DNA of 49,233 nt from Candidatus Pacearchaeota archaeon (GCA_018304165.1 JAGVWS010000011.1:1-49233), one strand, 5' to 3'; numbered from the stretch's first letter, positions 7,573 through 47,349 are shown. The notes: generated from the sequence alone by a model not told the origin. Numbers and translations are program-made.

Positions 7573-7591
7573 CCTAAAAACTCAAGGATTT

Positions 7592-8839
7592 TTATTTTAA
7601 AAGCCACTTCCATGCAGGAATCATTTTTATTATTCCTTCATCAACCTTTAATTTTCCTTCATCTTTCTTAGTTATTAAGTATGCTTCTTTTCTGCCGAAT
7701 TTCCTCATGAATTCTTTTAGTGTCTTAAAGTCTTCATTGTTAATTTTTTCTTGATACTTGATTTCAATTGGAGTGTCATTATGTATTATGTCTAATTCGT
7801 TGCCATTCTTCCAGAAGCTTTTAGCATCCATAGAATTAATTATTGCCGTTTCAACCATTCTGCCGAAGAAGTCACTATTAATTGGCGTTTTGTAAAGCTT
7901 TATTATCCCATTGTCTGTTGGATAAGCTCTTTTTTTCTTTCTTAGAGTAGTACTTCCTCTCCTGTAATTTCCAAGCATTCTAATAAGGAAACTTTCCTGC
8001 AAGTAGCTAATATAACTCTTTATTACCCTTCTGTCTTTTTCAAATTGTTTGCTCAATGATTGGTAATCAATATACATTCCTGGATTATAAGTTATTAATT
8101 GAAGTAGCGTCCTCAACAATTCTGGCTCTTCAATCTTAAATCTTTGGGGGATATCTTTGTAAATTATCCTGTCAATCACTAATGCTTGTATATATTCTTT
8201 AAAATCTTTTTCGCTTTCTAATCTGAAAGTTTCTGGAAAACCTCCATTTTCAACATACTTTATGAATAATGGGTTGATTTTTGTTTCATATTTGTATTCT
8301 GTTTCTAAAACATTGTTGAATTTCAGGTACTCAGTAAATCTGAACGGAGTTATCATGAATTCTGCTATTCTACCAGCTAGTGTTTCTTTAGTCTTCTTTC
8401 TTATGAATAGTGATTCTGAACCAGTTATAACAAATTTTATTTTTGGATAAATATCATAATATTTTTTCATCTCATTTTCCCAATTATTGCATTTTTGAAT
8501 CTCATCTAAGAATATATAGACTTTTTCTTCACGAAAATCTTTTTTCTCTGCTTCTTTGTAAGATTCTAAAACTTCTCCAAACGTTGCTTTAATTTCATCA
8601 AAAGAATAGAATAGAATATTCTCTTTCTTGATACCTTCTTCAAGTAATTTTTCAATAAGCTGGTAAGCAATAGTAGTCTTGCCAACTCTTCTAAGACCGA
8701 TTAATGCGATAATAAATCTTTCCTTCATTCTCCTGTTTACATCTAAAAAAACCTCGCGTTTGAAAGGCAGAGCTAATTCAGGATCAACCTTGTTACTAAT
8801 CCACCAATGATTAACCTGCTCTAACGATAATTTTTCCAT
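7592..8839 (-). CDS. AAA+ superfamily ATPase (AAA_14/DUF4143 type)
   Basis: Walker A GLRRVGKT, Walker B IFLDEIQ, ITGS, GGFPE, C-terminal ELD..PIEIKY nuclease-like motif. Confidence 0.9.
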   Translation of the reverse strand: MEKLSLEQVNHWWISNKVDPELALPFKREVFLDVNRRMKERFIIALIGLRRVGKTTIAYQLIEKLLEEGIKKENILFYSFDEIKATFGEVLESYKEAEKKDFREEKVYIFLDEIQKCNNWENEMKKYYDIYPKIKFVITGSESLFIRKKTKETLAGRIAEFMITPFRFTEYLKFNNVLETEYKYETKINPLFIKYVENGGFPETFRLESEKDFKEYIQALVIDRIIYKDIPQRFKIEEPELLRTLLQLITYNPGMYIDYQSLSKQFEKDRRVIKSYISYLQESFLIRMLGNYRRGSTTLRKKKRAYPTDNGIIKLYKTPINSDFFGRMVETAIINSMDAKSFWKNGNELDIIHNDTPIEIKYQEKINNEDFKTLKEFMRKFGRKEAYLITKKDEGKLKVDEGIIKMIPAWKWLLK

Positions 8840-8895
8840 ATGTACATTATATTGTACTTATTTATAAACCTTATGGTCATTGCAATGTACATATT

Positions 8896-18202: not shown

Positions 18203-18297
18203 TTCAGTTCTAGGAATTGAACTTCAATTACTTTAATCTCGTGAGAGTTAAAGTTACCAAAATTTCAAAGAAATTTTTAGTACCTAGTGCGGGCGTT
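18203..18297. mobile_element. Miniature multi-hairpin insert ending in a duplicated tRNA 3' end
   Basis: CCTRGTGCGGGCGTT at 18190 and 18283; three internal palindromes. Confidence 0.7.
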
Positions 18298-23996: not shown

Positions 23997-24009
23997 GTAG
24001 CTGAAACTC

Positions 24010-26188: not shown

Positions 26189-27804
26189 TTTATCCCCAGC
26201 CTGTTTAATGTGTGAAAGCGGAGAAATTCTGCTTTCTCTAAAGCTTCCCTGACGGAGTCAGAAGTAGTGCCAACTAATTTTCCCTGCCTTTCATTATTGC
26301 GAATCTCATAACTGGCAGCTTCTTTAGCAACTAACTCTACAATGTATCTCAGGAAAGAAGTCTTGTCAGAAGCATTCTGCCTGTTCTTATAATCAGAGTG
26401 AGCAGAATTGAGATAAATAATGGGAGTGCCTAACTGGTCTTCTAATTTGCTTCTAAGATGAGCGTCGCTAATTTGGAAATCAATTGGCTGGGGCTGGCCG
26501 AAAGGAACTGGGCCTCTTGGAACAACTCTCTCCTCAAAACCAGACTCGTCCTCAACAAAAGTTCCGGGGCCAGGATGCTTTCCGGATGGAGTTTTTGGAC
26601 CTCTTCTTCCCCCACCGCCTCCTGATTCAACGGGCTGAGCGCCAATGACTCTGACTAATTCTCCTTCGCCAGACCTTGTTAGGGAGCCTCCCAAACCAAG
26701 CTTCCTTAATTCTTTGAAAGCGTCCTGCATCGCTTCATAAGCCTTTTTAATCTCAATAGTGCTGCTTCTTTGACTGCCTTTCTTTGATAGTTCCGCAACT
26801 ATAGGCCTTAATTTATCCTCAATCTCCTTGATAGTTTCAAACCAGGCTCTATAAGTGCGGCTGTTCTTATCAATGGCATCTCTTCCAAGAACAAGCCTGT
26901 TGAAACGGTCATTGATAAAACCGCTTACTTTACCGGAATTCCAGACAAGATTGCTTTCTAATTCTGACAATTGAGTTAAGGAATCATAAACCAAAACATC
27001 TTTAGAATAAACAGCGACGGCATCGCCAATCGAGTCAGGATTCAGGAATAATACAACTTCCAAACCTCCGGGAGTTTCTTCGTTCTTAATTGGGACTCTC
27101 AAAACTTCGTCCATGAAAGGAGCAGAAGAACCAATTAAGTAGTTAGCTGCCTCAACAGGAGAAACTAATCTTCTCCTGCCATCATCCCTTCCAACGCTCA
27201 TATTAACAATGCCGCTGCGAAGAGCGGGAGCGTATAATTTTTGAAGCCACTTCTTCAAAGCAGGAGTAGTCAAAACTTTCTCCATGACGTGGTCGCCAAT
27301 CTGGTCAACGATTACTCTTGTTCCGTGCTTGAAAACGCCGCCAAAGCATTGCTCAACATCAGAAGCACTAAGCCTGTCAGTCCTGAACTTAACGCCATTC
27401 TTGCCTAATTCCCATCTAACATAAGAATAACCGGCATTGATAGGACCATCATAAGCTCTGGAGATAACATGCATCACTTCTCCAAGAGAGCCAAAGCCGA
27501 GAATTCCCATGCCCTTCTCCCCGCGCTGGTCAGTTCTTTCCCTCTTATCAGAATAACCAACACTAAGGGGAAGACTGAAGAGTTTGTTCTCAGTCATTCC
27601 TCTCCCATTATCAGAAATAATTAATCTTCTCTGAGGGGGAGCAGAAATAACAGAGATATCCTCTATCTGTCCGGAAACTCTGGCATCAAGGCTGTTAGTA
27701 ACGAATTCCCTGATAGAATTCTTCTCATTATAAGCCCTTGAAAGTTCAACAATGGCATAACCCTGCCCCTGACCATGAAACTGAACCATGCCTTCGGAAG
27801 TCAT
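26185..27804 (-). CDS. MORC-like GHKL ATPase without recognisable nuclease domain
   Basis: REFVTNSLDA, ISDNGRGM, GEKGMG, GTRV boxes; S5-like domain; Gly-rich linker; C-terminal IYLNSAHSDY domain. Confidence 0.85.
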   Translation of the reverse strand: MTSEGMVQFHGQGQGYAIVELSRAYNEKNSIREFVTNSLDARVSGQIEDISVISAPPQRRLIISDNGRGMTENKLFSLPLSVGYSDKRERTDQRGEKGMGILGFGSLGEVMHVISRAYDGPINAGYSYVRWELGKNGVKFRTDRLSASDVEQCFGGVFKHGTRVIVDQIGDHVMEKVLTTPALKKWLQKLYAPALRSGIVNMSVGRDDGRRRLVSPVEAANYLIGSSAPFMDEVLRVPIKNEETPGGLEVVLFLNPDSIGDAVAVYSKDVLVYDSLTQLSELESNLVWNSGKVSGFINDRFNRLVLGRDAIDKNSRTYRAWFETIKEIEDKLRPIVAELSKKGSQRSSTIEIKKAYEAMQDAFKELRKLGLGGSLTRSGEGELVRVIGAQPVESGGGGGRRGPKTPSGKHPGPGTFVEDESGFEERVVPRGPVPFGQPQPIDFQISDAHLRSKLEDQLGTPIIYLNSAHSDYKNRQNASDKTSFLRYIVELVAKEAASYEIRNNERQGKLVGTTSDSVREALEKAEFLRFHTLNRLGIK

Positions 27805-28400
27805 AACAAAACCCTCCCTGATTTAGGCAATGATAGAGCAACTTCTAGGTGAGGAGTTGCAAGAATTGGATTTGGGAAGTCTTTGTTTAATTCATCCAAA
27901 GAACTTCTAATTGCTAAAGGATTCCTTGCAGCAATAGCTTCTAAGCAATCGTCATCAGTTAAAAGTCTTCTAACAGTATCAACAGATTTAGGAATATCAA
28001 AGGCATAACCTGCTTCTTCAGCAGTTCTGCCAGTATAATCACTAGGACCTCTGTAAAAAATGCTGAATCGTGCAACTAACAAACCATCATTCATAGCGTC
28101 CATAACAATGTCCTCCATTTCAGAAACAGCGCCAGCAATGTACAAGTCAGGAATGAAATTACGATCGCCGGAGAGTTCAGAGTTCATACCTCTAGCAGTA
28201 AGAGCGACAACTCTTCCATTAGGAGAAACAAGCCTTCTAGTACTACTCAAAGTTACTTGTTCCTGACCAAAAGCCAGTGACTGAATAATGGCTTTTGTTG
28301 GACCACATGCCATAACTACATCTTCAAAAGAGTAAGTCAAATAAGGAGTCTTGAGATCAACGACCAAGAATGGTGCTTGATGAACAGATTGAGAAGTCAT
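27801..28400 (-). CDS. Hypothetical protein
   Basis: 199 aa ORF, ATGA-coupled on both sides. Confidence 0.75.
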   Translation of the reverse strand: MTSQSVHQAPFLVVDLKTPYLTYSFEDVVMACGPTKAIIQSLAFGQEQVTLSSTRRLVSPNGRVVALTARGMNSELSGDRNFIPDLYIAGAVSEMEDIVMDAMNDGLLVARFSIFYRGPSDYTGRTAEEAGYAFDIPKSVDTVRRLLTDDDCLEAIAARNPLAIRSSLDELNKDFPNPILATPHLEVALSLPKSGRVLL

Positions 28401-28732
28401 CTTCTTTCAGCCTCCTTTCTTATCCTTTCTATCTTCTCTCTTATTGGCCTAATTCTCTCATAAAAATCCTCAACTTTATCAAAATCTTCTTTGTTTCTTA
28501 TTTCATCATAATGTTTTTCGCACTCTTCAAGTGTTAAGTCAACATCAACACCATCGCTATAACTTGGTCCAGCTTGAGACAAAGTAATATCTTTCTGAGA
28601 GTATAACAAAAGATATTTTGTCTTTCCAAGATCTAAGATATCACTCACCCAGCTATGTATCTCTAATCTCTCTTCTAATTGTCCTTTGTTAAACTCGCTT
28701 GGCTCAAGGATTTTTGATTTTAAGATTTTCAT
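28397..28732 (-). CDS. Hypothetical protein
   Basis: 111 aa ORF, ATGA-coupled, GGAGG RBS. Confidence 0.7.
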   Translation of the reverse strand: MKILKSKILEPSEFNKGQLEERLEIHSWVSDILDLGKTKYLLLYSQKDITLSQAGPSYSDGVDVDLTLEECEKHYDEIRNKEDFDKVEDFYERIRPIREKIERIRKEAERR

Positions 28733-29532
28733 TCTAACTTTCCTCCCAATTCTTTCACTAATTTTTCCAGTCTCTCGGCAACTCTTGAGCGATGAGCAAA
28801 GTTATCCTTTGACATGGCGGCGATTCTTCTGAGAAATTCTTTCTCGCTAAGCCCTGCATACTTTCCTGTAGATGGAGAATCATCGCTCGTTCTCTGGCGC
28901 TGCTCATAAAATCTTCCCATGTTATCCATTAAGAAGTAACTTCCGGCATCAACACTCATTTCAATAACGTCAGGAAAAGTGTTCCATCTAAGAACAATGC
29001 ATTTATCATGATTGTCATGCCTTGCAGCTCTGTGAATCCTTGATTCTGTAGTGTTGGGAAAAATACCTCCGACTAATTCAATAATCTTTGGAATGGCAGA
29101 CCATATTCTTCTAAGACTGGCGTCATCTCCAACAACGGCCTTGATTTCGGCCTCTGCTCTCTTTCTTTCAATGCCCCGCTCATATTCAGTTCTGATGTTA
29201 TAAAAAGAATCAGAGTTAGTTATGCGAGCGAATAATGCCTGCGCCTCTTCAAGAGTCAGACCCTCTCTAAGTCCTAAGTAAGACTTAATGCTTTCAATAG
29301 TATCTGACGGGGCGAAGATTCTCTCTCCCTCATCATTCCTTCTGGTCAGGTATTCTCTTGCAGTATACACTAAATGGCAGCTGTTTTCTCTTGGCTTGTC
29401 TTCAGCATCTTTCCATGCCCTTATTTCAAGGCTTTCAAGAAGCCCAAGCTGCCTTGAAGCGACGAGCGCTGTCCTCTCATCGTCTTTCTCCTGCTGGTAT
29501 GTCTTAGTTGTTTCGGCGTTTGTTTCAGCCAT
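28729..29532 (-). CDS. Hypothetical protein, first gene of the MORC operon
   Basis: 267 aa ORF divergent from the AbrB-PhoU gene. Confidence 0.75.
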   Translation of the reverse strand: MAETNAETTKTYQQEKDDERTALVASRQLGLLESLEIRAWKDAEDKPRENSCHLVYTAREYLTRRNDEGERIFAPSDTIESIKSYLGLREGLTLEEAQALFARITNSDSFYNIRTEYERGIERKRAEAEIKAVVGDDASLRRIWSAIPKIIELVGGIFPNTTESRIHRAARHDNHDKCIVLRWNTFPDVIEMSVDAGSYFLMDNMGRFYEQRQRTSDDSPSTGKYAGLSEKEFLRRIAAMSKDNFAHRSRVAERLEKLVKELGGKLE

Positions 29533-29690: not shown

Positions 29691-30608
29691 ATGGAAGAAC
29701 GAAAACTGATAAAGCAAGGCGGAGGCGGACTTACAATCTACCTTCCTAAGAAGTGGCTTGACAGGAAAGGGCTGAAGGAAGGAGATAAGGTAAGCGTCAT
29801 TGAAGACGAAGGTTCATTGATTATTGAAGGGAAAGTTAACAAAAAGAACGAAATCATAATTGGCATTAATGAGTCTAATATTAATGACTTAAGACACCTG
29901 CTCACTCACGCTTACAGGAGAGGTTTTAGTAGAATAATCATCAATCATGAAAGAACTGAAAGAATCATCAAAGAAGTAAAGAAAGTTGTAAGTAACGTTC
30001 TGCTAGGTTTTGAATTAACAAAAATTGAAGGAAATGAACTACTGATAGAAAACATCTCCGAGCCAAGCGAAGAAAAATATGAAGTGATGATGCAGAAAGT
30101 TTTTCTGGTAATAAGTGAAACAATGCAATTAATGTCTAACGATTTTTCCAAGGGAAAGTTTGATGATGCTAATGAGATGAAAGAACTTCGAGACCAGTCT
30201 GACAAATTCATAATCTTCTGCAAGAGGCTGTTAAGCAAGAACAAGCATGAAAGAAACCTGCTCTTTGAATGGGAATTTTTGACATTCATGATGGATATCC
30301 AGCACACATGCTACTACCTATACCACTATTGCTATGATAACAAAATAAAAGGCACTAAAGAAATGATAGCATTTAGCAAAGAATTAGAATCATACTTTTC
30401 TCACCTAAAAACAGCCTATAACAAAAAAGACGCAGCAACAGTCCACAAGATCAATGAATTAAAGAAGAAATACCACTTTGGTGACATCACTAAAATGATT
30501 GAGAAATCAAGAGGCAAAGAAAGCAGTGTTTACGCTTATTTTAGAGAAGTATTCAGAAGCATTCAATTATCAACAAGCCCGATAATGTCCATGAGTTTTA
30601 AGTACTAA
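29691..30608 (+). CDS. AbrB/SpoVT-PhoU phosphate-uptake-regulator-like protein
   Basis: RKLIKQGGGGLTIYLPKKW...LKEGD; AYRRG; LLGFE; helical PhoU-like C-terminus. Confidence 0.85.
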   Translation: MEERKLIKQGGGGLTIYLPKKWLDRKGLKEGDKVSVIEDEGSLIIEGKVNKKNEIIIGINESNINDLRHLLTHAYRRGFSRIIINHERTERIIKEVKKVVSNVLLGFELTKIEGNELLIENISEPSEEKYEVMMQKVFLVISETMQLMSNDFSKGKFDDANEMKELRDQSDKFIIFCKRLLSKNKHERNLLFEWEFLTFMMDIQHTCYYLYHYCYDNKIKGTKEMIAFSKELESYFSHLKTAYNKKDAATVHKINELKKKYHFGDITKMIEKSRGKESSVYAYFREVFRSIQLSTSPIMSMSFKY

Positions 30609-30664
30609 AAAACACTTTATATAGCGTGCTTCAGAATTAAAAGATTTACAAACCGCATCAAATA

Positions 30665-30678
30665 GAAAGCTTTAAATA
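30665..30678 (+). promoter_or_regulatory. BRE+TATA promoter of MNT-HEPN module 1
   Basis: GAAAGC TTTAAATA. Confidence 0.6.
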
Positions 30679-30691
30679 TACTCTTACTCAT

Positions 30692-31264
30692 ATGAATAAT
30701 ATGTTACTCAATAATAAAAAGGTATTAATCTTGGAACAGTTTGTACTAGATTATGATACTAAGAAGTATGGAAGAGATATTGCGAAGAGACTGAAACTAA
30801 ACCAGAAGACTGTTGCTAATATGCTGAACGAACTGGAAAGAGAAGATATCCTGAAATATTCACGGGAAGGAAAGAACAAATATTATTTTCTGAACAAGCT
30901 TAATCCGCACATCAGAGAAATTATTAAATTGGTTGAAGTTGGCAGAAAAATCAGGTTTTTAGAAAAGAATTCTAAATTAAAGGACCTTTTTAATAAACTA
31001 GAAGAAAGAGCCAGCGGGATGGTTCTTATTTTTGGCAGTTATGCAAGCGGGAAGAGCAATGATAAGTCAGACCTTGATGTTTTTGTCATTGGAAGCATAA
31101 AGGATATTAAAGATTTAGAAGATCTCTACAATATTAAAATAAATATTGTAAAAAGCATCAAGAACAAATTTGACAAGAATGAAATTTTTATTAATGAAAT
31201 AATTAAAAATCATATTATTCTCAAAGGAATAGAGGAGTATATCGGTTTAGCATGGCAAGCATAA
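30692..31264 (+). CDS. wHTH-MNT (minimal nucleotidyltransferase) antitoxin-like
   Basis: N-terminal HTH; FGSYASG....SDLDV. Confidence 0.88.
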   Translation: MNNMLLNNKKVLILEQFVLDYDTKKYGRDIAKRLKLNQKTVANMLNELEREDILKYSREGKNKYYFLNKLNPHIREIIKLVEVGRKIRFLEKNSKLKDLFNKLEERASGMVLIFGSYASGKSNDKSDLDVFVIGSIKDIKDLEDLYNIKINIVKSIKNKFDKNEIFINEIIKNHIILKGIEEYIGLAWQA

Positions 31265-31734
31265 AATGGTGCTGCGCACAAAAAGAAGGGATTAGGTTAA
31301 TTGAGCCCAGCGATAACCTGGCGTCAGGTTATATGAAGATGGCTGAGGATGCAATAGGCACAATGAACAGAGAGAGAAATTACAATCCTGCCTTCGCAGT
31401 ATCTGCATGTTATTACTCAATGTATTATTCACTTTATTCAATAATGATGAAAATAGGAATCAAATGTGAAATTCATTCATGCAGCCTGGAATTTATGAGG
31501 AGATTTTTGAACAAATTTTATTCTTCAGAATATATTAAAATTATAGAGAGGGCATTTGGATGCAGAGGGATAGCGCAGTATTATGTTGATAAAGTTGTCA
31601 GAAGAGAAGATTCCGATTTTATAATGCTTAAAGCCCCATTTTTCTTATCAAAGTCCAAAGAGATTCTTTCCAAAATAAACCAGAAAGATATTCAGGAAGT
31701 AAGAAAAGGATTATCTTTATTTCTGCCGGAATAA
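31252..31734 (+). CDS. HEPN domain protein
   Basis: YYSMYY, KCEIHSC, R..AQYY. Confidence 0.85.
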   Translation: MASIKWCCAQKEGIRLIEPSDNLASGYMKMAEDAIGTMNRERNYNPAFAVSACYYSMYYSLYSIMMKIGIKCEIHSCSLEFMRRFLNKFYSSEYIKIIERAFGCRGIAQYYVDKVVRREDSDFIMLKAPFFLSKSKEILSKINQKDIQEVRKGLSLFLPE

Positions 31735-31764
31735 TCAACAAGCCCAATAATGTCCATGAGTTTT
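31734..31764 (+). repeat. Duplicated 3' end of the AbrB-PhoU gene (direct repeat of 30569-30599)
   Basis: 30/31 identity; the single difference is synonymous CCG/CCA. Confidence 0.9.
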
Positions 31765-35223: not shown

Positions 35224-35647
35224 ACAAGGTAATTTATTATTAGCACCATTCCCCTTTTCAGACCAATCTGGAAGAAAGGTAAGACCAATAATTGTGATAA
35301 GCAATAATCGTTACAATCAGTATCATGATGATTTGGTAGTTGTTGGAGTTACTTCAAACTTGTTTAAAGACCCCTACTACATTGATTTTACTAATTCTGA
35401 CCTTGATTTTGGCAATTTAACGGCTATTTGTCAAATAATGACTGATGCTCTAACATTAATGGACAAAGAACTATAACGAGAGACCAAAATATTTCACCAT
35501 GTTTTTTGTTCTCTCGAATATATCATAAGACATTATGAGGAAATATTAAAGTCTTATGCTATAATAAGAAAGAGAATAGGTAGAGTTAATAGAAACAAGA
35601 TGAAAGCGATTAATGACAAAATCTTAGAGTTAATAAAGATAAAATGA
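35216..35647 (+). pseudogene. PemK/MazF toxin interrupted by a 90-bp hairpin insertion
   Basis: PFPFSD...K.RP..VIS..VTS; the C-terminus IRKRIGRV...IKIK resumes at 35564. Confidence 0.85.
35474..35563. mobile_element. Family-B composite of two TA-flanked hairpins
   Basis: TA duplication (35472-73/35562-63); the modules recur at 38505-38664 and 39554-39645. Confidence 0.85.
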
Positions 35648-38504: not shown

Positions 38505-38664
38505 TATAACGAGAGACCAAAATATTTTACCATGTTTTTTGTTCTCTCGAATATGTCAAGATGCTGGAGCTTGCATCTTGAGCACACTCAAGATGTCAAA
38601 ATGTTGAAGTATTACATTTTGAGCAACAGACAAAATGGTCAAATACCTAAGTCTGTTGCTGTAG
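38505..38664. mobile_element. Family-B composite hairpin with nested family-A insertion (38555-38621)
   Basis: Aligns to 39554-39645 except for 67 extra bp made of two TGTCAA..TTGAGCA hairpins. Confidence 0.85.
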
Positions 38665-38804
38665 ATTTAATTGGAAATAAACTCATTAACTTTACTTGGT
38701 AGGCAAATTATATCCACAATAACCTAATTAACTAAATATCAGCGTCATTCGCTCAACTAAACTTATGCATCATCTTAAACTTCCACCGTAGTTTATGCCT
38801 TAGA

Positions 38805-39553: not shown

Positions 39554-39645
39554 TATAATGAGAGACCAAAATATTTTACCATGTTTTTTGTTCTCTCGAA
39601 TATAGCAACAGACAAAATGGTCAAATACTTAAGTCTGTTGCTATA
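39554..39645. mobile_element. Family-B composite hairpin (empty-site version)
   Basis: Near-identical to the 35472-35522 and 38505-38664 modules. Confidence 0.85.
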
Positions 39646-39688
39646 GTTTAAAATAACATACTTTAGATACAGGCTTTCTCAGCTATTC

Positions 39689-39790
39689 TCATAACCCATA
39701 CTCTTCTAATCTCTTAGCTATAACTCTTGATGTTAAACGCCTTTTATCTAGAATTATTGGATAAATATCCTGCATTATGTGTTGATTGGT
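39689..39790 (-). repeat. Orphan 3' end of response-regulator gene, copy 3
   Basis: Encodes HIMQDIYPIILDKRRLTSRVIAKRLEEYGL-stop. Confidence 0.85.
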
Positions 39791-39798
39791 TCTGATTT

Positions 39799-40080
39799 TT
39801 ATCTTCTCCAAAAGATCTTATCATGATGGTCAAAGTCAACAAATAAGATAAACATTTGAGCAATATCGACCGTGAAAGTCAGAACAAAACTCTTATCGAT
39901 ATGAACCTCTTTTAAATTACTCATATCATACTTCAAGTTTTTATAACGCTTAATAGTCTCATAATCATTATTAATTATCTCCCTGATCTTCTTATTAATT
40001 ATCTCCGCTTTCTTCCTGTCTTTCTTAACAAGCTTTTTTATCTTTAGCTTTAATTTATCAGTCAAATCAAAAGAAAACAT
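39799..40080 (-). CDS. RelE/YafQ-family toxin (start likely MFSFD at 40080)
   Basis: YKNLKY......VHID.SFVL.F......F.DFDHHD.I. Confidence 0.85.
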   Translation of the reverse strand: MFSFDLTDKLKLKIKKLVKKDRKKAEIINKKIREIINNDYETIKRYKNLKYDMSNLKEVHIDKSFVLTFTVDIAQMFILFVDFDHHDKIFWRR

Positions 40081-40352
40081 CAAACCTCGCAAAGAGAATC
40101 AAGCTGCTCAAGAGTCATTTTGCGACTCTTATGACTCTTCATATGCTTATTAATAACCTCTAAGACCTCTTTAACATAATCTTCTCTAGCTTCTTCATTA
40201 ATCAAGTCGTGGCCATGAATTTCTAAAAACTTATTAATGGCTTCAGACTTATCCTTAAAATTATATTTAGCCTTCACAACATTTATTATTCTGTTAGCTT
40301 GAGGAGTCAATTCAATTCTGGCAGATATGCTTTCTTGTGATTCCATATGCAT
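40080..40352 (-). CDS. Antitoxin (DUF2683-like)
   Basis: NRIINVVKAKY.FKDKSEAIN; directly upstream of the RelE-like toxin. Confidence 0.8.
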   Translation of the reverse strand: MHMESQESISARIELTPQANRIINVVKAKYNFKDKSEAINKFLEIHGHDLINEEAREDYVKEVLEVINKHMKSHKSRKMTLEQLDSLCEV

Positions 40353-40395
40353 ATGATATGCATATTGAGTATTTAAGGCTTTCGCTCCAGACGCG

Positions 40396-40500
40396 TTACA
40401 ATCCGTACTTTTTCAGTCTTTTAACTATGAGTCTTGGTGACAGACGACTTTTATCGGGTATAATGGGATAAATGTCATTCATTATTCTATCATTTTGGGT
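40396..40500 (-). repeat. Orphan 3' end of response-regulator gene, copy 2
   Basis: Encodes TQNDRIMNDIYPIIPDKSRLSPRLIVKRLKKYGL-stop. Confidence 0.85.
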
Positions 40501-40580
40501 AAATATATAAAAACTCATTCTAATAAAAAATAGAGCAGAATCTTAGGGATTAAGAATATCCTTTAGGTTAAACTGGTTTA

Positions 40581-40892
40581 TTAAACAGCGGTGTTAATCT
40601 CTTTTTCAGAACCTTTAATCAAATTCCAATCCATTTTTATTAATTGCCTTACAGCAGGGTTTTGTGTATTTAACTTGTAAAGGTCTGATTTTCCGATTCT
40701 TCTTGTTTTTATAACTATCTTGTTCATTTCTAATCTACTCCAAAATGTTTGAAGAGTGGAGTAACTAACTTCAGACTTTCTAGCTATTTCAGTCAAGGGA
40801 TAATCAAACAACTGGAAGCTTATAAGAAAATCTAGAACTTTCATTACGGGATTTGATCCGAATACCTGAATCAAGGGAGTTTCATTTTCCAT
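40581..40892 (-). CDS. Winged-helix DNA-binding protein
   Basis: FG..P..KVLDFL....FDY..TEIA..S.VS..T; TR.IGK..LYKLN. Confidence 0.8.
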   Translation of the reverse strand: MENETPLIQVFGSNPVMKVLDFLISFQLFDYPLTEIARKSEVSYSTLQTFWSRLEMNKIVIKTRRIGKSDLYKLNTQNPAVRQLIKMDWNLIKGSEKEINTAV

Positions 40893-40988
40893 ATTGTTTA
40901 ATGGAGATAGGGATATATAAATGTTTTGGTTAATGTTTTTATATTACAATATTAGAAACATTTAAATATATGCTGTATTTCTAAATTT

Positions 40989-41264
40989 ATGGAATTTAAT
41001 AGTGAAGATAAAATCAAAGCAACTATTCTTTATCATTTGAGAAGAAAGAAGGTTATTGGCGGGGTTCATACTCCTATGGATACTTTAAGAAGAGGTTTTC
41101 CTTCTCATGCTGGGAAAGAAGTTGATAGGGCTGCTAAAGAATTAATCAAGCAGGGATTTTTGTTAACTAAGCCCACCAATCAAGGACTTCATGTGATGTT
41201 AAACAAAGACAGACTGATAAAGATTGAAGAGTTTATCAAGAAAGTTTTGGGCCATGAGTTTTGA
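40989..41264 (+). CDS. Small winged-helix-like hypothetical protein
   Basis: IGG.HT...L..GFP.H....V.....LIK.GFL..KPT; divergent from the wHTH gene, own TATA. Confidence 0.7.
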   Translation: MEFNSEDKIKATILYHLRRKKVIGGVHTPMDTLRRGFPSHAGKEVDRAAKELIKQGFLLTKPTNQGLHVMLNKDRLIKIEEFIKKVLGHEF

Positions 41265-41289
41265 ATAGTTATTGCGTTGCTAAAAGAAT

Positions 41290-41846
41290 TCATAATCCAT
41301 ACTCCTCAAGCCTCTTAGCTATAACCTTTGATGTTAATCGCTTTTTATCAAGTATTATTGGATAAATGTCTTTCATAATCCTATCATTTTGAGCAAAATC
41401 TGCAACTATTGACATGTCAAGAATCTTGGACTCCGATTCTTGAGCATGCTCAAAATGTCAAGAACATTAGTTCTTGAGCACATTCAAAATGTCAAGAATT
41501 TACAATTCTTGAGCACAGTCAAGGATTAACATCCTTGATGATTAACATTTTTGATGACTAAGACAAGTTTTTGACACTCCAACTCTCAAGCAATCAGGAT
41601 TGGCTTGAGCAATCCATCTCGCAGAGATTATAGCATCAGCCTTCCATGAATCACTATTCAAATCAAAATCAACTACGGCTAATTGCTAAACATTGCTCAC
41701 GAGCTTCGCTCTCAACTCTTTTTCAGACGAAACAAGGTCTGCTCTCAATGAATAATCCTTTAAAGCTTCTCTAAAAACTTTAGATAATTCCTGCTGATGC
41801 CGAGGCTCGTCTTCAACAATAATAACAGAAAGAGAGAGCGGGTCAT
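41290..41846 (-). pseudogene. Single-domain response regulator (CheY-like receiver) pseudogene
   Basis: SVIIVEDE...QLAVVDFDL...VGVS[insertion]IVADF...ILDKK; 2-nt frameshift near the start, TAG at 41686-88, 162-bp hairpin insertion. Confidence 0.8.
41409..41576. mobile_element. Family-A tandem hairpin array with 6-bp TTGACA duplication
   Basis: 3-4 units of ATGTCAAGA-loop-TCTTGAGCA; removal restores GTG TCA ATA GTT (V-S-I-V). Confidence 0.85.
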
Positions 41847-43096
41847 TTTGATTTTAAAAGCCACTTCCAAACAGGTATTATCTTTATTTTTTTTCCATCT
41901 ATTTTTATTTCTTCTTCCTGATCTAATGTTAAGATGAGGCCTTCAGAAAGGCCATATTTCTGCATGGAATCCAACAATCCTTCAATTTCTCTATTTTTAG
42001 TGGCAGGATTGTTAAGGTTTGTCGATACTTGTATAGCTTGAGTTATTTTCAAGCCCCTTTTTATTACAAAATCGCATTCTCTTTTTTCAAGATGATAATA
42101 GACATCTAAACCATGCTTAACTAACTCTATAAAAACTAAATTTTCCAGCCTTTTTCCTTCATTTTCAGTAAAATTAAAAGCCACCGTTCTTAAGAAACTA
42201 TTATCCATGACATAAAATTTTGATGATGATACCTTCTGTTTCTTTATTGAGTAATCGAACTTAGTTATTGTTGATGCAATAAACACGTTTTTTAAGTATT
42301 CAATATATTTCTTTATCATGCTTAAACTCTTTATACTTGATACTTGTTTCAAAGTAGCATAAGAATATGTTCTGCTGACATTAGAGAAAAGATAAAGGAT
42401 TAAATCATTCAGCTCTTTTACTTTTCTTATGTTATATCTCTTTATTATATCTTTGTTTATTATATCTTCAAAGTATTGTTTGGACAGGCTTAGATCGTCA
42501 TTTTTAATAATTAAAGGAAATCCGCCGGTCTTAAAGTATTCATTAAATGCCTTAAAGACTTCTACTCTCTCGCTCGTGGTCTTGTATTCCGGATTTATTT
42601 TTTTTAGTTTTAAAAATTCTCTGAAAGAGAAGGGCAACAGCTTTATTATTTTATTTCTGCCAGTCAAAAAAGTTGATATCTCAGAACTCAACAGATTTGA
42701 ATTTGAACCAGTAACGAACACCTTGATTTTTTTTGCATAAAGATTATTTACCCATCTTTCCCACGATTTAGCATCCTGTATTTCATCAAGAAAATAAACG
42801 ACTTCCTCTTTCCCATATTTTTCCGCTACTATCTCCTCAATATGAGAAAAATTTTCAATATTAAAATCTGAGAATTTTATATCATCAAAACTCAAGTAAA
42901 ATAACTTCTGTTTAATATTTTTAGATATTATTTTTAGGAGTGAGCTTTTCCCGCATCTTCTTATACCCGTTATAATAACAATCTCATTGCCTTTTAGAAA
43001 TTCATCTATAGAAATTTCCCGATCAATAAGATTGTCCATCTTTCTAAAAAGTTCTTGTTGGTCATTAATTACTTCTCTTAGCTTGTCTTTTTCCAT
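41843..43096 (-). CDS. AAA+ superfamily ATPase (AAA_14/DUF4143 type)
   Basis: GIRRCGKS, FLDEIQ, VTGSNS, GGFP, ENLVF, ECDF...IQV. Confidence 0.9.
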   Translation of the reverse strand: MEKDKLREVINDQQELFRKMDNLIDREISIDEFLKGNEIVIITGIRRCGKSSLLKIISKNIKQKLFYLSFDDIKFSDFNIENFSHIEEIVAEKYGKEEVVYFLDEIQDAKSWERWVNNLYAKKIKVFVTGSNSNLLSSEISTFLTGRNKIIKLLPFSFREFLKLKKINPEYKTTSERVEVFKAFNEYFKTGGFPLIIKNDDLSLSKQYFEDIINKDIIKRYNIRKVKELNDLILYLFSNVSRTYSYATLKQVSSIKSLSMIKKYIEYLKNVFIASTITKFDYSIKKQKVSSSKFYVMDNSFLRTVAFNFTENEGKRLENLVFIELVKHGLDVYYHLEKRECDFVIKRGLKITQAIQVSTNLNNPATKNREIEGLLDSMQKYGLSEGLILTLDQEEEIKIDGKKIKIIPVWKWLLKSK

Positions 43097-43228
43097 AGCT
43101 TTTGCAAGATTTTCTTCTTTATAAACCTTTCTTTTCTATTTAATAAGGCTTTATAAATATATGTTAAACAGTAAAGAAAGGTATTCTGTTTAAATTAGTA
43201 GAAGCTTTTATTGAATCAGCAATTCACG

Positions 43229-43279
43229 TTAATGCTTTAGGTCATCTTCAACAATAATGATGGAGAGGGAGCGGGTCAT
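43229..43279 (-). repeat. Orphan 5' end of the response-regulator gene
   Basis: MTRSLSIIIVEDDLKH-stop; direct repeat of 41810-41846. Confidence 0.85.
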
Positions 43280-43641
43280 CTTCTTTTCCTTTTTGATAAA
43301 ATTGGTGTATAACATGTGTCTTCTCTCAAGGTCCTTGGATTTCCGCTATCTATATATTTCCTAAAGGTCATACTAAAATATCTATCCTCCGCCTCACCAT
43401 GACCAGCATAAGTTACTCTAGTTACTCTTCCTGGACCGTATGGATGACGGCCCATGAAGCATCTTACTTCAAACCTTGGGAACCTTCCGTTACTATCACA
43501 CCTAGACAAAATTTTAACGAGACAATTATTAGCTGAATCTTCATATTCTTCACTCTCTAATCTTCCGGACTTATAGGTTATTGATTGTCTATGAAAAACG
43601 GTTGAAGGACATTTAACTTGGAGGAGTGTTTTTGAAGTCAT
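43276..43641 (-). CDS. Hypothetical protein
   Basis: 121 aa, ATGA-coupled. Confidence 0.65.
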   Translation of the reverse strand: MTSKTLLQVKCPSTVFHRQSITYKSGRLESEEYEDSANNCLVKILSRCDSNGRFPRFEVRCFMGRHPYGPGRVTRVTYAGHGEAEDRYFSMTFRKYIDSGNPRTLREDTCYTPILSKRKRR

Positions 43642-43925
43642 CTTCTCTTTCCTTCAAATTTTTTTCTATACTCTTCTCTCAACCCGGAAAAATCTTCTCC
43701 GCTGTTTATCCTATCAAAATAATCATAGCATTCTTCCAAAGTCGTCCGTCTTCTGCAGCCTTTATCAAGAGCTACCCCAAATGCTACACCCTCGGCAGCT
43801 ATATAGTGCCATAATCCATAATTGGCTCTTCCGCGAAGTATATTCCAGCCAATGGTTCTCGTTATAAATAACTCTTCTAAATAACCAATATTTTTATGCC
43901 TAAGAACACCATGTATAGAAGTCAT
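43638..43925 (-). CDS. Hypothetical protein
   Basis: 95 aa, RBS, ATGA-coupled downstream. Confidence 0.65.
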   Translation of the reverse strand: MTSIHGVLRHKNIGYLEELFITRTIGWNILRGRANYGLWHYIAAEGVAFGVALDKGCRRRTTLEECYDYFDRINSGEDFSGLREEYRKKFEGKRR

Positions 43926-43937
43926 TTTCTTTCCCCC

Positions 43938-45209
43938 TTAAAAATTATAACTTACCGCTAGAGCACCAGAAATTGTGCCCCTAGCATCTTCAGGTTTAGT
44001 ATAGCGAATGCCAAGATGAACAGCCCAGGACTCATTACCATTCTTATCCTTGCCACCGCTAAGCAGAGTGGTATGATATTCTAGGTTACTGACGTCGCTG
44101 TTAGAACTCTGGTTATCAAGATAAGAAGTCCTTCCAATCTGGAATTTGTTATGGGTGAGGAAGTTATGACTAATATCTCCAAGGCCGACAGCTATGTCAG
44201 TCTTTAATGTTCTGTCGCTTATCCCTGGATTAGAATACTTAATATCAAAGCTGAACTTTCCGGCTTCTCCGCTATTTGAAGCTGCAGCTCCGAAGAAATC
44301 AAACTTGAATGGATCACTGCCAATGCCAAAAGGGAATGTAGCATCACCGTCGCCAGCAAGGAAGCCAGTAATGGAATTGAATAATGTGTCCTGGACACCA
44401 TTAACAAAAGCACCACCGGGAGTTTTATCACCAAATCTAATCCTAGCTTCAAGTCCATTATTTAAACCCTCACCATTCTCAAAAATTTTAGCATGAGCCC
44501 AAACCTTATAACCCTCGAGAGCACCACTACCCCACTTATTATGAGCAGAGATATTGAAAGTATCTAAATCATTAATTCTATGACCACCAACAGCAATGCC
44601 TGAATTCTCGCTTGTGTTCCAGATAAGAGCATAACCAAAATTGCCCTCACTATCAAGAGTGAATTGGGGCCTGACATTATCCTTGTCCTTTAAAACATCA
44701 GAAAATTTCAGTCCAATAGCGCCAGCAATACGATCATCAAGAGGCTTGGCTAAGTCCTGAACTTCAAGATTCCAGAAGTCAAGCCACTTGCTATCTTTAT
44801 AAGATTTTTCAATGAGAGCGCGGCTGTTTGTATCACCAGAACTCTTAATCTCTTCAGTACCAGCATTAAATCTGAAGCCTGCTAAATCATTGTAAATTTC
44901 ACCAAGAGCCAAATCAGCACCAGTTATTCTGGAGTCGCCTTCGTCCCTGAAAGCAAGCTTTCCAAAGCCATTGCTGACAATAACATGAGATTGAAGATTA
45001 CCATGACCATCAGAATAGCCCCTGGTAAGAATATTAATTGGGCCGCCAGCTCTTTCAACGGCAGGAGCCTGCTCAATAGCAGCCTCTAAATCAGACTGCT
45101 CCTTGATAATTTCGTCGTCATCAGCGAGAGCAAGAGCACCAACGGCGTAAGGCATGACAGCAGCACTAAGAGCGGCAGCGTTAGCGATTTTTTTGAATTT
45201 GTTTGTCAT
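43938..45209 (-). CDS. Secreted beta-strand-rich, porin-like protein (start likely MTNK at 45209)
   Basis: Sec signal ending ALA; many amphipathic strands; C-terminus ISGALAVSYNF. Confidence 0.6.
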   Translation of the reverse strand: MTNKFKKIANAAALSAAVMPYAVGALALADDDEIIKEQSDLEAAIEQAPAVERAGGPINILTRGYSDGHGNLQSHVIVSNGFGKLAFRDEGDSRITGADLALGEIYNDLAGFRFNAGTEEIKSSGDTNSRALIEKSYKDSKWLDFWNLEVQDLAKPLDDRIAGAIGLKFSDVLKDKDNVRPQFTLDSEGNFGYALIWNTSENSGIAVGGHRINDLDTFNISAHNKWGSGALEGYKVWAHAKIFENGEGLNNGLEARIRFGDKTPGGAFVNGVQDTLFNSITGFLAGDGDATFPFGIGSDPFKFDFFGAAASNSGEAGKFSFDIKYSNPGISDRTLKTDIAVGLGDISHNFLTHNKFQIGRTSYLDNQSSNSDVSNLEYHTTLLSGGKDKNGNESWAVHLGIRYTKPEDARGTISGALAVSYNF

Positions 45210-45371: not shown

Positions 45372-46259
45372 ATGAAGAGAAAATTAGTTCAGCAGGGCGC
45401 CAGCACTTTAATGATTAGCCTGCCTTCAAAATGGGCCAAGCAGTTTAATTTAAAGAAGGGCGATGAAGTTGACATTAATGAAAAGGATAAACTGCTTATT
45501 ATAGCAAAAGAGAGCACCAGCGGAGATAAAAAAACAGCTAAAATTGATGTTTCATCATGGCATCCGCTTATTAATCGCTTGTTATTATCTTATTTCCTCA
45601 AAGGATATGATGAAGTTGAGATTCATTATTCCAATCATGAGCAGGTGAAAAGGTTCCAAAAGGATATCCTAACAACCGAATTATTGGGGTGGGAAGTTAT
45701 CAAGCAGAGTCCCGGAGTATTGGTTGTCAAGGACTTGACCGCTGGAGAAATGGGAAATACTGATGACGTTTTAAAGAGGCTGTTCTTCATGCTTGATAAT
45801 ATGTGCGGAGAACTTATTGAAAGCCTTGAGAAGAAACATGATGCAGGGGTTATTGAAAGCGACAAAGTAATTAATAGATTTGTTTACTACTGCTTAAGGC
45901 TTTTGAACAAAAAAGGATATAAAGAATATGATAAAACTTCGCAGGTTTACAGCATAATAACACTTGTTGAAGAAACCGGCGACTTATTCAAGGACATTGC
46001 AAAGAAGAAGTTCAAAGCAATGAAGGATGACCTTGCTGCGCTTAAAGATATAAAAAACTCGTTCGCATTATTCAAAGAGGCATTCTTTAATTTCACCCGC
46101 GAGGTTGAGATAAAGCTCGCTCACAATTACGAAAAAATAAAAAAAGAAATTCATCCTAAGAGCGAGATTGACTCATACCTTCACGCTATAAATGGCAACA
46201 TAATAAGGATGAATAATGAGCTAATGATGATGAATGTTGGCTCTATTTCTGTTCATTAA
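45372..46259 (+). CDS. AbrB/SpoVT-PhoU phosphate-uptake-regulator-like protein (paralog 2)
   Basis: KRKLVQQG.STLMISLPSKW...LKKGDEV; KGYDE; LLGWEV; D..INRF..YCLR.LNK. Confidence 0.88.
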   Translation: MKRKLVQQGASTLMISLPSKWAKQFNLKKGDEVDINEKDKLLIIAKESTSGDKKTAKIDVSSWHPLINRLLLSYFLKGYDEVEIHYSNHEQVKRFQKDILTTELLGWEVIKQSPGVLVVKDLTAGEMGNTDDVLKRLFFMLDNMCGELIESLEKKHDAGVIESDKVINRFVYYCLRLLNKKGYKEYDKTSQVYSIITLVEETGDLFKDIAKKKFKAMKDDLAALKDIKNSFALFKEAFFNFTREVEIKLAHNYEKIKKEIHPKSEIDSYLHAINGNIIRMNNELMMMNVGSISVH

Positions 46260-46316
46260 TATAGACAATGGTCTCGTAAAAGTTCGCTTGAGCTTATTTA
46301 GAACGCTATAGTCTTA

Positions 46317-46330
46317 GAAAAGTTTATATA
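46317..46330 (+). promoter_or_regulatory. BRE+TATA promoter of MNT-HEPN module 2
   Basis: GAAAAG TTTATATA, 21 nt before the ATG. Confidence 0.7.
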
Positions 46331-46351
46331 GGGCTTATAATATTCATAATA

Positions 46352-46930
46352 ATGAAGAAATCAATTAAAGGCGTAAAAGTAGAAGAATTTGAGAGGGCTT
46401 ATAGGAAAACTTTGGCATGGTTCTTCGCCTTTCCAGAAAGAAAAACAGGACTTACAGAGCTTTCTAAACTAATCAAATCCTCAAAAACAGCTACTAAAGA
46501 AGCTGTAGAAACTCTGATTAACAATGAATTTATTAACAGAGAAATTGCAGGCAAGGCATGGATTCTATCAGCTAACGAAAGAAATAAGCACTTCCAAATC
46601 AAAAAAATTCCTTATCACTTGGATAAAATTTATGAATCGGGAGTCATAGAGGTTATTTATCAAATTATACCCCAGCCGAGAGCAATAGTTTTATTTGGAA
46701 GCTATAGGCATGGAGTTGATACTGAGGAAAGTGACTTGGACATCGCTGTGGAAGTCTTGGGAAATGAAGAGTTCCGGATAAGGAAGATTGTGGCTATTGA
46801 ACAATTGGGTTACAGAAAGAACATCCCTGTTAATATTCATATCTTTTCCAGGAATAAAATCGATATAAATTTATTTTCAAACATTGCCAACGGGATAGTG
46901 CTTGATGGATTCTTGGAGGTCAGGCCATGA
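46352..46930 (+). CDS. wHTH-MNT nucleotidyltransferase
   Basis: N-terminal HTH; LFGSYRHG.D.EESDLDIA; NIANGIVL.G. Confidence 0.88.
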   Translation: MKKSIKGVKVEEFERAYRKTLAWFFAFPERKTGLTELSKLIKSSKTATKEAVETLINNEFINREIAGKAWILSANERNKHFQIKKIPYHLDKIYESGVIEVIYQIIPQPRAIVLFGSYRHGVDTEESDLDIAVEVLGNEEFRIRKIVAIEQLGYRKNIPVNIHIFSRNKIDINLFSNIANGIVLDGFLEVRP

Positions 46931-47349
46931 GAACTAAATTTCCTGATAAGAAAAGGGCGTTGAGTGTTATCGCTGCTTCAGAAAAAGAAATGAAATACAC
47001 ACTTAATCTGCCAGTCAGTGAAGAGTCTGCATTTAATATCATAAGAAATATTTATGAATGCTTCAGAATGCTCGGAGACGCTCTATTAATATCCAGAGGC
47101 TTTGCTTCTGAAGACCACGCAGAGCAGGTAACAGAACTTCAATCAATACCTGTTAAAACTGATAGGCCTGTTAAGCTGATTGATTCGCTTAGAAAAATAC
47201 GCCATAACATAAATTATTATGGCTACATTCCATCAATAGCTGAAGCTGAAGATGCAATCTCAATAACTAAAGCATGCTATTACCAGTTATTAGAATCTAT
47301 TAAGAAAGAAATAAAAATGAAGGTGATTAGGAAATTTTCGCACCAATAA
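46927..47349 (+). CDS. HEPN-like protein
   Basis: YECFR....A....G....H; LRKIRHNINYYG. Confidence 0.8.
   Translation: MRTKFPDKKRALSVIAASEKEMKYTLNLPVSEESAFNIIRNIYECFRMLGDALLISRGFASEDHAEQVTELQSIPVKTDRPVKLIDSLRKIRHNINYYGYIPSIAEAEDAISITKACYYQLLESIKKEIKMKVIRKFSHQ

Follow-up and report, generated by a model that had tools for sequence, protein, structure and literature searches.

Streptococcal cis-mobilizable elements (CIMEs) of the ICESt1 type have been described as elements without an integrase that accrete in tandem at the end of a gene (PMC5704250). Here, we analyzed a comparable arrangement at positions 39,689 to 43,279 of a 49,233-nucleotide stretch of DNA (the window) from a Candidatus Pacearchaeota archaeon (GCA_018304165.1, JAGVWS010000011.1:1-49233), in which three diverged copies of one coding tail separate compact gene pairs. 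The source is a metagenome-assembled genome (MAG) of a tiny groundwater archaeon of the DPANN group (G000; 867 kb, 42 contigs, 79% complete); its contigs carry C numbers, and the window is contig C18. The assignment to DPANN follows from Kae1, whose gene has its nearest matches in MAGs labelled Pacearchaeota, Woesearchaeota, or Nanoarchaeota. An earlier note on this DNA had seen in it an integrase-free, integron-like array of cassettes that travel with a fragment of an anchor gene and stack up by repeated single-crossover integration. Our results largely confirm the observation and partly support the class of mechanism, while the parent gene of the tails, the mobility of the cassettes, and the enzyme are unproven.

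As far as they are described there, CIMEs resemble this locus in lacking integration genes, in being flanked by attL/attR-type direct repeats that take in the target gene's end, and in stacking in tandem by re-use of the site. They differ in being decayed integrative and conjugative or integrative and mobilizable elements (ICEs or IMEs) of several kilobases in bacteria, usually with a related integrase-bearing element nearby. Here, in contrast, one-module units of 0.6 to 1.4 kb lie in a DPANN archaeon without a matching integrase, and the repeats are 87 to 104 nt of diverged coding sequence without a long identical core. The locus has the one-orientation repeats with modules between them of a CIME-type array and lacks the shared identical core and the cognate recombinase.

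In the Thaumarchaeota, one survey reports 14 of 68 integrated elements in the 3′-distal parts of protein genes, to which they bring a new stop codon, with arrays arising by re-use of the site (PMC6563490). As outlined in that survey, integration at the ends of archaeal protein genes, the supply of a new stop, and the formation of arrays are points of likeness, and a PhoU-like gene in our window behaves likewise; however, the thaumarchaeal elements carry integrases or casposases, are much larger, and use short att sites or target-site duplications. Tycheposons, found in Prochlorococcus islands, are reported as arrays separated by partial tRNAs (bioRxiv 10.1101/2020.12.28.424599). By that account, the present array would resemble them in that successive integrations at the same site push older elements outward in a streamlined genome, but they target tRNA or tmRNA genes and encode tyrosine recombinases.

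The likeness to integrons goes no further than the outline, namely, ordered single-module cassettes beside one anchor. There is no intI beside the array, and no inverted-repeat arm, as attC-type palindromes would have, was found at any cassette junction within 39689-41415; the lone arm inside a tail (39713-39732) pairs with 44735-44754, outside the array. Nor are the cassettes promoterless, since TATA-like boxes precede four genes and one gene lies on the opposite strand. With integrase, attC, and promoterless cassettes all missing, the array is not a member of that class, contrary to the earlier comparison. Tandem accretion of integrase-less integrated elements is the closer known frame. IMEX elements (integrative mobile elements exploiting Xer) lack a recombinase and form tandem arrays at dif via the host Xer system (XerCD); in the genome under study, XerA is the only intact tyrosine recombinase found. 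In the icd gene of Escherichia coli, phage 21 and e14 bring a diverged replica of the 3′ end of the gene, which leaves silent differences between the copies. Unlike the cassettes here, phage 21 has an integrase gene. Unusual features here are minimal units, no cognate recombinase, long diverged coding replicas instead of a short identical core, an anchor without relatives, and a DPANN host.

Tail repeats with coding-type divergence

The three tail copies are as follows.

41290-41397, minus strand: tail A; 28 codons and TGA at 41290-41376, with a likeness to tail B that extends 8 codons further upstream; ends in DIYPIILDKKRLTSKVIAKRLEEYGL and stop
40396-40503, minus strand: tail B; 28 codons and TAA at 40396-40482, with a TATA-like box at -29 from the ATG; ends in DIYPIIPDKSRLSPRLIVKRLKKYGL and stop
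39689-39778, minus strand: tail C; 28 codons and TGA at 39689-39775, beginning 23 nt past the toxin stop; ends in DIYPIILDKRRLTSRVIAKRLEEYGL and stop

These are direct copies of 87 to 104 nt on one strand, and a repeat search returns a 104-nt repeat with spacings of 707 and 894 nt. Every tail consists of ATG, 27 further codons, and a stop; the tail open reading frames (ORFs) are listed at 41, 40, and 40 aa, and 21 of 41 aligned residues are invariant across the three. The three 3′ ends are present as described, all in one orientation and with one gene pair between each two. Their likeness far exceeds chance: in BLAST of the window against itself, tails A and C share 83% identity over 90 nt (E = 6e-20) and tails A and B 73% over 104 nt (E = 3e-10). 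The limits of likeness are unequal: that of A stops at the stop codon, A and B share 8 more codons upstream, and B and C remain alike for about 20 nt downstream of the stop. Such unequal limits fit replicas of different extent.

The copies had been said to differ largely at synonymous or conservative positions, and they do. By the Nei-Gojobori method, A and C are separated by 10 synonymous and 4 non-synonymous changes (pS 0.56, pN 0.06; dN/dS about 0.06), A and B by 14 and 11 (pS 0.77, pN 0.17), and B and C by 14 and 10 (pS 0.76, pN 0.15). Under neutrality, the synonymous share should be about 21%, the proportion of sites that are synonymous; observed shares are 56 to 71%, an excess with binomial P of 8e-5 for A-C (10/14), 2e-4 for A-B (14/25), and 1e-4 for B-C (14/24), that is, P ≤ 2e-4 throughout. 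Since synonymous changes prevail, the copies diverged while coding, in the manner of alleles from separate lineages rather than through neutral drift at this site.

We searched for the tail beyond this genome at several scales. No significant match was found in 60 relatives, where three other genomes gave matches at chance level only (E = 0.087 to 0.18). A profile of the three copies retrieved only the window's own 41-aa entry from 1.84 billion representatives, and pattern scans of genome contigs (58 pattern matches) and metagenome contigs (234) yielded none that was confirmed. In the ESM Atlas, the best score for tail A was 0.83, under the level where shuffled proteins stop scoring. The proposal that cassettes travel with a fragment of the anchor gene is therefore not supported, there being no copy in the 1.84 billion representatives or in either contig scan.

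The broken small ORF and its duplicated 5′ end

Upstream of tail A on the same strand lie three further parts of the array.

43221..43279, minus strand: orphan 5′ fragment of the small ORF, MTRSLSIIIVEDD, reading MTRSLSIIIVEDDLKH, an internal stop, and REL; its ATG overlaps the stop of a 121-aa ORF
41577..41846, minus strand: small ORF, weakly receiver-like, broken by a frameshift after codon 6 (MTRSLS) and by a TAG in frame; extends to the start of the hairpin repeat
41410..41576, no strand assigned: copy of a dispersed modular hairpin repeat, about 166 nt between the broken ORF and tail A, with units GCTCAAGAA-loop-TTCTTGAC

The orphan 5′ end, already reported in the earlier note, is present at 43279..43221 on the minus strand. 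It matches the start of the broken ORF (41846..41786) at 71 to 83% over about 66 nt, or 81% over 43 nt, and an ATPase gene is thereby bracketed by a 66-nt duplication of the 5′ end of the small ORF. The broken ORF begins with MTRSLS at a start that overlaps the ATPase stop and, after the frameshift, reads VIIVEDEPRHQQELSKVFREALKDYSLRADLVSSEKELRAKLVSNV, TAG, QLAVVDFDL...CLRVGV. Its sequence is identical in contigs of two other runs (X5 record 15 and X7 record 24). The data from other runs are Logan contigs of four runs rather than reads, and such contigs drop rare forms; gaps in cover in the low-depth runs X7 and X9 were left out of account.

Of the claim that this is a receiver-domain pseudogene, the second part holds, whereas receiver identity is weak: by sequence, the ORF is only weakly receiver-like. 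When its first 58 residues were compared by hhalign with 13 single-domain receivers drawn from relatives, P was 1.4e-4 over 54 columns only. Receiver matches occur in 55 of 151 sampled genomes of the order, and no PF00072 match above the cut-off exists anywhere in this genome. The ORF has no other copy in the genome and no relatives among proteins of 52 to 167 aa in the protein database, longer proteins not having been searched with this query. Likewise, whole-gene tandem paralogs, of which the fragments could have been remnants, were looked for and not found, there being no other ORF or tail copy in the genome and no significant tail match in the 60 relatives.

Nor does the pseudogene run into tail A, as had been stated, since the hairpin repeat of about 166 nt (41576..41410) intervenes. 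This repeat is 97% identical over 118 nt to C34:25458-25575, has other copies on contigs that include C12, C40, C29, and C25, and folds, as DNA, far better than shuffled versions (z = -5.4). The broken ORF plus tail A would come to about 128 aa, and the single-domain receivers of relatives are 117 to 131 aa long. That the tail is the end of the broken ORF would follow from position, strand, size, and the parallel 5′ duplication, not from homology.

Cassette content

The ATPase and the genes between the tails are as follows.

41843..43096, minus strand: AAA_14/DUF4143 ATPase and PDC-S01 candidate defence gene; a TATA-like box of its own stands at -29, and its stop and the ATG of the broken ORF overlap
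40989..41264, plus strand: 91-aa ORF, divergent partner of the 103-aa gene, with a TATA-like box at -28; no family match
40581..40892, minus strand: 103-aa winged-helix-like protein, with weak matches to IscR (0.0017) and PDC-M05A (3e-5)
40080..40352, minus strand: putative antitoxin of 90 aa; TATA-like box at -24, overlap of 13 nt with the toxin gene; no family match
39799..40092, minus strand: 97-aa RelE/YafQ-like toxin; TIGR00053 (YafQ) at 2.7e-13, 50.3 bits, below the NCBIfam cut-off of 87.25

The AAA ATPase had been identified correctly, with Pfam matches to AAA_14 (1.1e-35) and DUF4143 (1.2e-18). It also gives a full-length match over residues 19-415 to PADLOC model PDLC04787 of candidate PDC-S01 (4.1e-109), and both AAA_14/DUF4143 genes of the window match this candidate (4e-109 and 1e-66). 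PDC-S01 is reported to be common in archaea and mostly unvalidated, defence activity being untested for most PDCs (PMC12988326).

The other modules bear out the earlier reading in part. In the pair called winged helix-turn-helix (wHTH), the 103-aa protein qualifies by weak matches, but its 91-aa partner has no match; a paralog of the 103-aa protein on C27 is 50% identical and sits in the same divergent pair layout. In the toxin-antitoxin (TA) pair, the toxin-like protein matches YafQ below the cut-off and RelE_StbE at 19.9 bits, under the cut-off of 27.9, whereas the putative antitoxin belongs to no family found; a paralogous pair lies on C15. TATA-like boxes stand at -24 to -29 upstream of the ATPase, wHTH, 91-aa, and antitoxin genes. 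The genes between the tails are intact and tightly packed, in units of 0.6 to 1.4 kb that hold one module each and almost no spare DNA.

Some other-run contigs vary within these modules. Run X4 has a variant contig over window 40771-40947 with six clustered substitutions at 40771-40794, and contigs of the same run skip 100 to 138 nt between the divergent 103-aa and 91-aa genes, in their promoter region. In addition, single contigs match up to window positions 41875, 43100, and 43652 and continue into unrelated sequence, at low depth and with one contig each. The first of these points is 32 nt inside the 3′ end of the ATPase gene, the second precedes the ATG of that gene by 4 nt, and the third is 11 nt away from the junction of the 95-aa and 121-aa ORFs.

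Duplicated gene ends elsewhere in the genome

The earlier note counted further gene-end duplications in the window. Those of Kae1 and a PhoU-like gene stand (22/24 and 33/35 nt), while that of tRNA-Ser at 18283-18295 amounts to 12/13 nt only and is too short alone. The tail of Kae1 (...DQVEVFWK and stop) is repeated after the adjacent AAA_14 gene at 7592..8839; the two copies differ by CAA/CAG, TTT/TTC, and TAA/TGA. At the stop codon, the sister genome (G001) agrees with the distal copy in having TGA. This AAA_14/DUF4143 gene, the second PDC-S01 match of the window, follows Kae1 at 7440-8960 between the copies of the last 24 nt of Kae1. An HNH endonuclease gene and a DNA methylase gene lie directly upstream of Kae1.

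The PhoU-like gene (29691..30608) shares 33 of 35 nt between 30565-30599 and 31730-31764, around a nucleotidyltransferase (NTase) gene and its 160-aa partner, a pair that is absent from G001. In G001, the PhoU-like protein ends in SMSLGY and stop, which resembles the distal copy (SMSFGY) and not the gene-attached end (SMSFKY and stop). As the displaced copy keeps the ancestral end and the gene-attached copy differs, the case fits an incoming replica; judged from sequence, the two ends form the attL/attR pattern of an element bringing a new end to the gene. The window has two distant PhoU-like paralogs (29691-31764 and 45372-47349) with a MazE/AbrB-type N terminus, each followed by an NTase and small-protein pair (MNT/HEPN-like). 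Likeness between the two pairs is only 37% over 81 aa. Neither pair follows the orthologues in G001, and a flanking repeat occurs at the first pair only.

Parallels occur on other contigs as well. The last 22 nt of the arginyl-tRNA synthetase gene (ArgRS; C37:12232-13164), including the stop, recur (21/22) 889 nt downstream, around genes for a VapB-like 85-aa protein and a PIN protein; in G001, weak homologues of the gene beyond this cassette directly follow ArgRS. Two tRNA-Gln genes flank 1.5 kb on C36, and an AbiEii pair on C11 is flanked by a 234-nt repeat (85%).

A genome-wide scan for duplicated termini, proposed in the earlier note as a check, was carried out on the ORFs of 100 aa or more, 814 in number. 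For 19 of them, the last 45 nt recurred (at least 20/22) within 4 kb downstream, against 0 of 814 in a control with reversed queries, and the first 66 nt recurred upstream for 16 of 814, again with none in the reversed control. Duplication of termini is itself enriched, but most instances are without cargo. The 19 tail repeats comprise 4 that flank cassettes (Kae1, PhoU-like, ArgRS, and tRNA-Gln), 3 tandem paralogs, about 9 immediate tandem copies with a stop, and 3 short-range or doubtful cases. Tandem Repeats Finder (TRF) reported 73 tandem repeats of period 25 to 120 in the 867 kb. Of these, 47 are intergenic, 11 span a start codon, 8 span a stop codon, and only 7 are internal to ORFs, even though ORFs take up 78% of the genome. 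Examples are C16:8021-8124, C27:1253-1334, C34:22031-22130, C34:58293-58386, and C39:6452-6641; several are perfect 41- to 52-nt duplications of the last codons and stop of a gene.

Kae1 tails are also repeated without a cassette, 40 to 213 nt downstream, in 3 of 78 other Pace- and Woesearchaeota loci (control, 0). One of these loci has three tails with 43-nt hairpin spacers, and there is similar repetition in genome G006 (locus L024); such spacer-separated repeats are like a cassette site with minimal or no cargo. In Kae1 loci of Woesearchaeota MAGs (L190:5693-5900 and L200:5697-6000), and also in L184, the tail is repeated two or three times directly downstream with a hairpin-bearing spacer of 40 to 43 nt. 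We dropped as chance a Kae1-tail repeat 908 nt downstream in locus L020, which falls inside a 438-aa ORF. A degenerate Kae1-tail pattern proved too loose on metagenome contigs, where none of its 80 loci encodes Kae1. Local repeats from BLAST of the genome against itself, including tandem paralogs on C13, C34, and C40, were set aside as ordinary paralogy. At C38:13162-21060, three genes share only their first ~33 codons (MPKNLRQRLVGG...GGC, lipoprotein-signal-like) and 37 nt upstream; these shared N termini are a source of 5′-end duplications unrelated to cassettes.

Recombinases and junctions

The array is free of integrases, as had been stated: a Pfam scan of the 57 ORFs of the window found no recombinase. 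A search for a trans-acting enzyme came up with nothing beyond XerA on C34 (PF00589, 229.6 bits; cut-off, 220) and a broken XerA-like gene on C35, the only PF00589 matches in the genome. The latter is a fragmented gene directly upstream of cysS (C35:7996-8490; L054:2671-2964) and may be the remnant of an integrated element. Cas1 was not found in this genome, nor was any resolvase over the cut-off. The genome has three genes for Y1 transposases (IS200/RAYT type), which were considered as candidate movers of the hairpin repeats, not of the cassettes.

Contigs of the four runs contained no joints between tail copies or between PhoU-tail copies, with the proviso that rare forms drop out of contigs; the joints that were seen all lie between copies of dispersed repeats or have short sides. 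Single contigs of other runs span tail C, the TA pair, tail B, and the wHTH gene with 0 or 1 differences (X5 record 14, 39619-40875; X4 record 6, 39604-40638).

Genomic setting of the island

The following features adjoin the array.

43638..43925, minus strand: 95-aa ORF without relatives, first gene of a small operon; its stop and the start of the next gene overlap (ATGA); no match in Pfam, NCBIfam, or PADLOC
43276..43641, minus strand: 121-aa ORF without relatives; stop overlaps the ATG of the 5′ fragment (ATGA)
39554..39652, no strand assigned: second dispersed intergenic repeat, with two hairpin modules, closing the array; also at 38505-38670 and 35472-35578, with copies on more than 20 contigs

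Read on the minus strand from 43925 to 39554, the order begins with the 95-aa ORF, the 121-aa ORF, the 5′ fragment, about 125 nt with a TATA-like box, and the ATPase. The broken ORF, the hairpin-rich 166 nt, tail A, the divergent 91-aa (plus) and 103-aa (minus) pair, and tail B follow, and then the 90-aa and 97-aa genes with their 13-nt overlap, tail C, and the dispersed intergenic repeat. The 121-aa ORF has no match in 200 genomes of the family and only itself among 5.8 billion clusters.

The G+C content is 27 to 34% inside this stretch, 38 to 45% in the flanks, and 37% in the whole window. G001 has genes from both flanks, in a different order, and lacks a counterpart of 39.4-43.9 kb, which makes this a break in synteny. 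Because the tail, the broken ORF, and the 121-aa neighbor have no counterparts, and given the synteny break and the low G+C content, the stretch from 39.4 to 43.9 kb is a small accessory island of genes without relatives.

Other features of the window concern its repeats and flanking genes. The hairpin repeats belong to two modular families spread over more than 20 contigs, with window copies at 35472-35578, 38505-38670, 39554-39652, 41410-41576, and 13118-13162; one pair of copies is 97% identical, and Logan contigs of other runs join such copies. Eight co-directional, overlapping ORFs at 23520-29532 on the minus strand, with a single Pfam match (HATPase_c_3, in a 539-aa protein), could be an uncharacterized operon of the defence type. 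An Rfam search of the window returned tRNA-Ser only.

Possible origin of the array

We tentatively propose that serial Campbell-type insertion of minimal defence and TA cassettes at gene termini made this island, an account to which we give a little less than an even chance. The island would have grown as compact, self-promoted cassettes were inserted one after another at both ends of one small receiver-like gene. The gene terminus would have come in as a replica on the new DNA and, by recombining with the terminus already present, would have left a copy on each side, like attL and attR. Two successive 3′-end events would give tail A, the wHTH pair, tail B, the RelE pair, and tail C, and one 5′-end event would give the 5′ fragment, the ATPase, and the gene; the anchor gene would then have decayed through the frameshift, the stop codon, and the insertion of the hairpin repeat. 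Either site-specific recombination by an unidentified or lost recombinase or recombination driven by homology could have served. The repeats, their coding-type divergence, the cassette content, the lack of a recombinase in the window, and the parallels at other genes are observed. From these we infer three points: the tails form the end of that gene, the replicas arrived with the cassettes, and recombination of this kind joined them. More broadly, cassettes might spread among DPANN archaea without a recombinase of their own, the terminus replica acting as a portable landing sequence at the same gene elsewhere via homologous recombination or a borrowed XerA; gene ends would then be open, integron-like collection sites, and duplications without cargo would be by-products or footprints. 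We regard this generalization as doubtful.

A number of results weigh against insertion at the ends of a receiver-like gene. The Pfam Response_reg profile (PF00072) gives the broken ORF 16.1 bits, with a cut-off of 30.2, and covers profile positions 1-54 of 111 only, and reading the ORF through into tail A still yields positions 1-54 and nothing more. Both profile tests of the claim that the tails belong to this ORF were negative: hhalign of the three tails against the 13 receivers gave a probability of 0.6%, and when 9511 C-terminal pieces of this genome were ranked against a profile of the last ~50 columns of the receivers, the tails came 919th, 1136th, and 5303rd. Removal of the hairpin repeat restores the frame or not depending on boundaries that are uncertain by 1 to 2 nt. 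The longest run identical in A, B, and C is 8 nt, so there is no long shared core, as copies of an att site would have. The tail occurs nowhere else in this genome, its copies being exactly three and all at this locus. Because the tail, the ORF, and its operon partner are confined here, there is no intact allele, empty site, or cassette with a replica elsewhere. The tyrosine recombinases of this 79%-complete genome are only XerA and a broken XerA-like gene. Finally, short tandem duplications are common at gene boundaries; therefore, duplicated termini can arise without cargo.

The retention of ATG, frame, and stop in all three tails, together with the gene-like position of the TATA-like box of tail B at -29, also fits expressed micro-ORFs. 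The tails could be paralogous, free-standing micro-genes of 28 to 41 aa kept by selection, for example as DNA-binding or regulatory peptides of the neighboring modules, their position after the broken ORF being coincidental. Each keeps 28 codons and a strongly purifying type of divergence, the ORF listing returns them at 41, 40, and 40 aa, tail C could be co-transcribed from 23 nt after the toxin stop, and none scores as a receiver C terminus; moreover, there are Atlas feature matches to short winged-helix fragments (DUF2582 and DUF977, for example), which all stay below 0.85 and are no more than leads. Yet micro-genes of this sort have no relatives in 1.84 billion representatives beyond their own 41-aa entry, nor in the two pattern scans, and no TATA-like box stands before tails A and C. 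In addition, the coding-type likeness of A and B runs 8 codons above the shared ATG, which is what part of a longer gene would show. The parallel duplication at the 5′ end of the same ORF and the layouts at Kae1, the PhoU-like gene, and ArgRS would be left unexplained. We consider such micro-genes unlikely, if worth keeping in mind.

The TRF repeats bear on another possibility, that duplication came first: the termini, or the whole gene, would have been duplicated locally and spread apart later by unrelated insertions or rearrangements, and no cassette would ever have borne a gene fragment. Of the 73 TRF repeats, 19 lie across starts or stops, immediate tandem copies that enclose no cargo make up about 9 of the 19 tail repeats, and cassette-less Kae1 tail repeats occur in 3 of 78 related loci (control, 0). 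Rearrangement could start from the dispersed repeats at 35472, 38505, 39554, and 41410-41576. However, copies made in place would be untranslated and drift neutrally, which is rejected by synonymous shares of 56 to 71% where about 21% is expected. Upstream of tails B and C, intact genes take up the space and the body of the ORF has left no trace, and each insertion would have to land exactly between copies. The PhoU-like gene points the same way: the end attached to the gene (FKY and stop) is unlike that of the sister genome, and the ancestral end is found on the displaced copy. An origin by duplication first appears unlikely to us, though it has to be taken into account. As for an assembly artefact or a chance resemblance, the MAG has many dispersed repeats, and Logan contigs break there; but the BLAST E values of 6e-20 and 3e-10 and single contigs of other runs that span the array and the broken ORF with 0 or 1 differences make this extremely improbable.

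Implications

DPANN archaea are reportedly rich in compact TA and single-gene defence systems (PMC12988326). Little is understood of how TA and single-gene defence modules pass between genomes devoid of plasmids, conjugation, and most transposons, above all in DPANN. The array and its recent counterparts at Kae1, ArgRS, and the PhoU-like gene give concrete junctions for population data and bench tests. Should the cassettes really bring a landing sequence with them, islands would have a very simple way to grow that depends on no recombinase; otherwise, the locus is still a record of how unusually prone this lineage is to duplicating gene termini.

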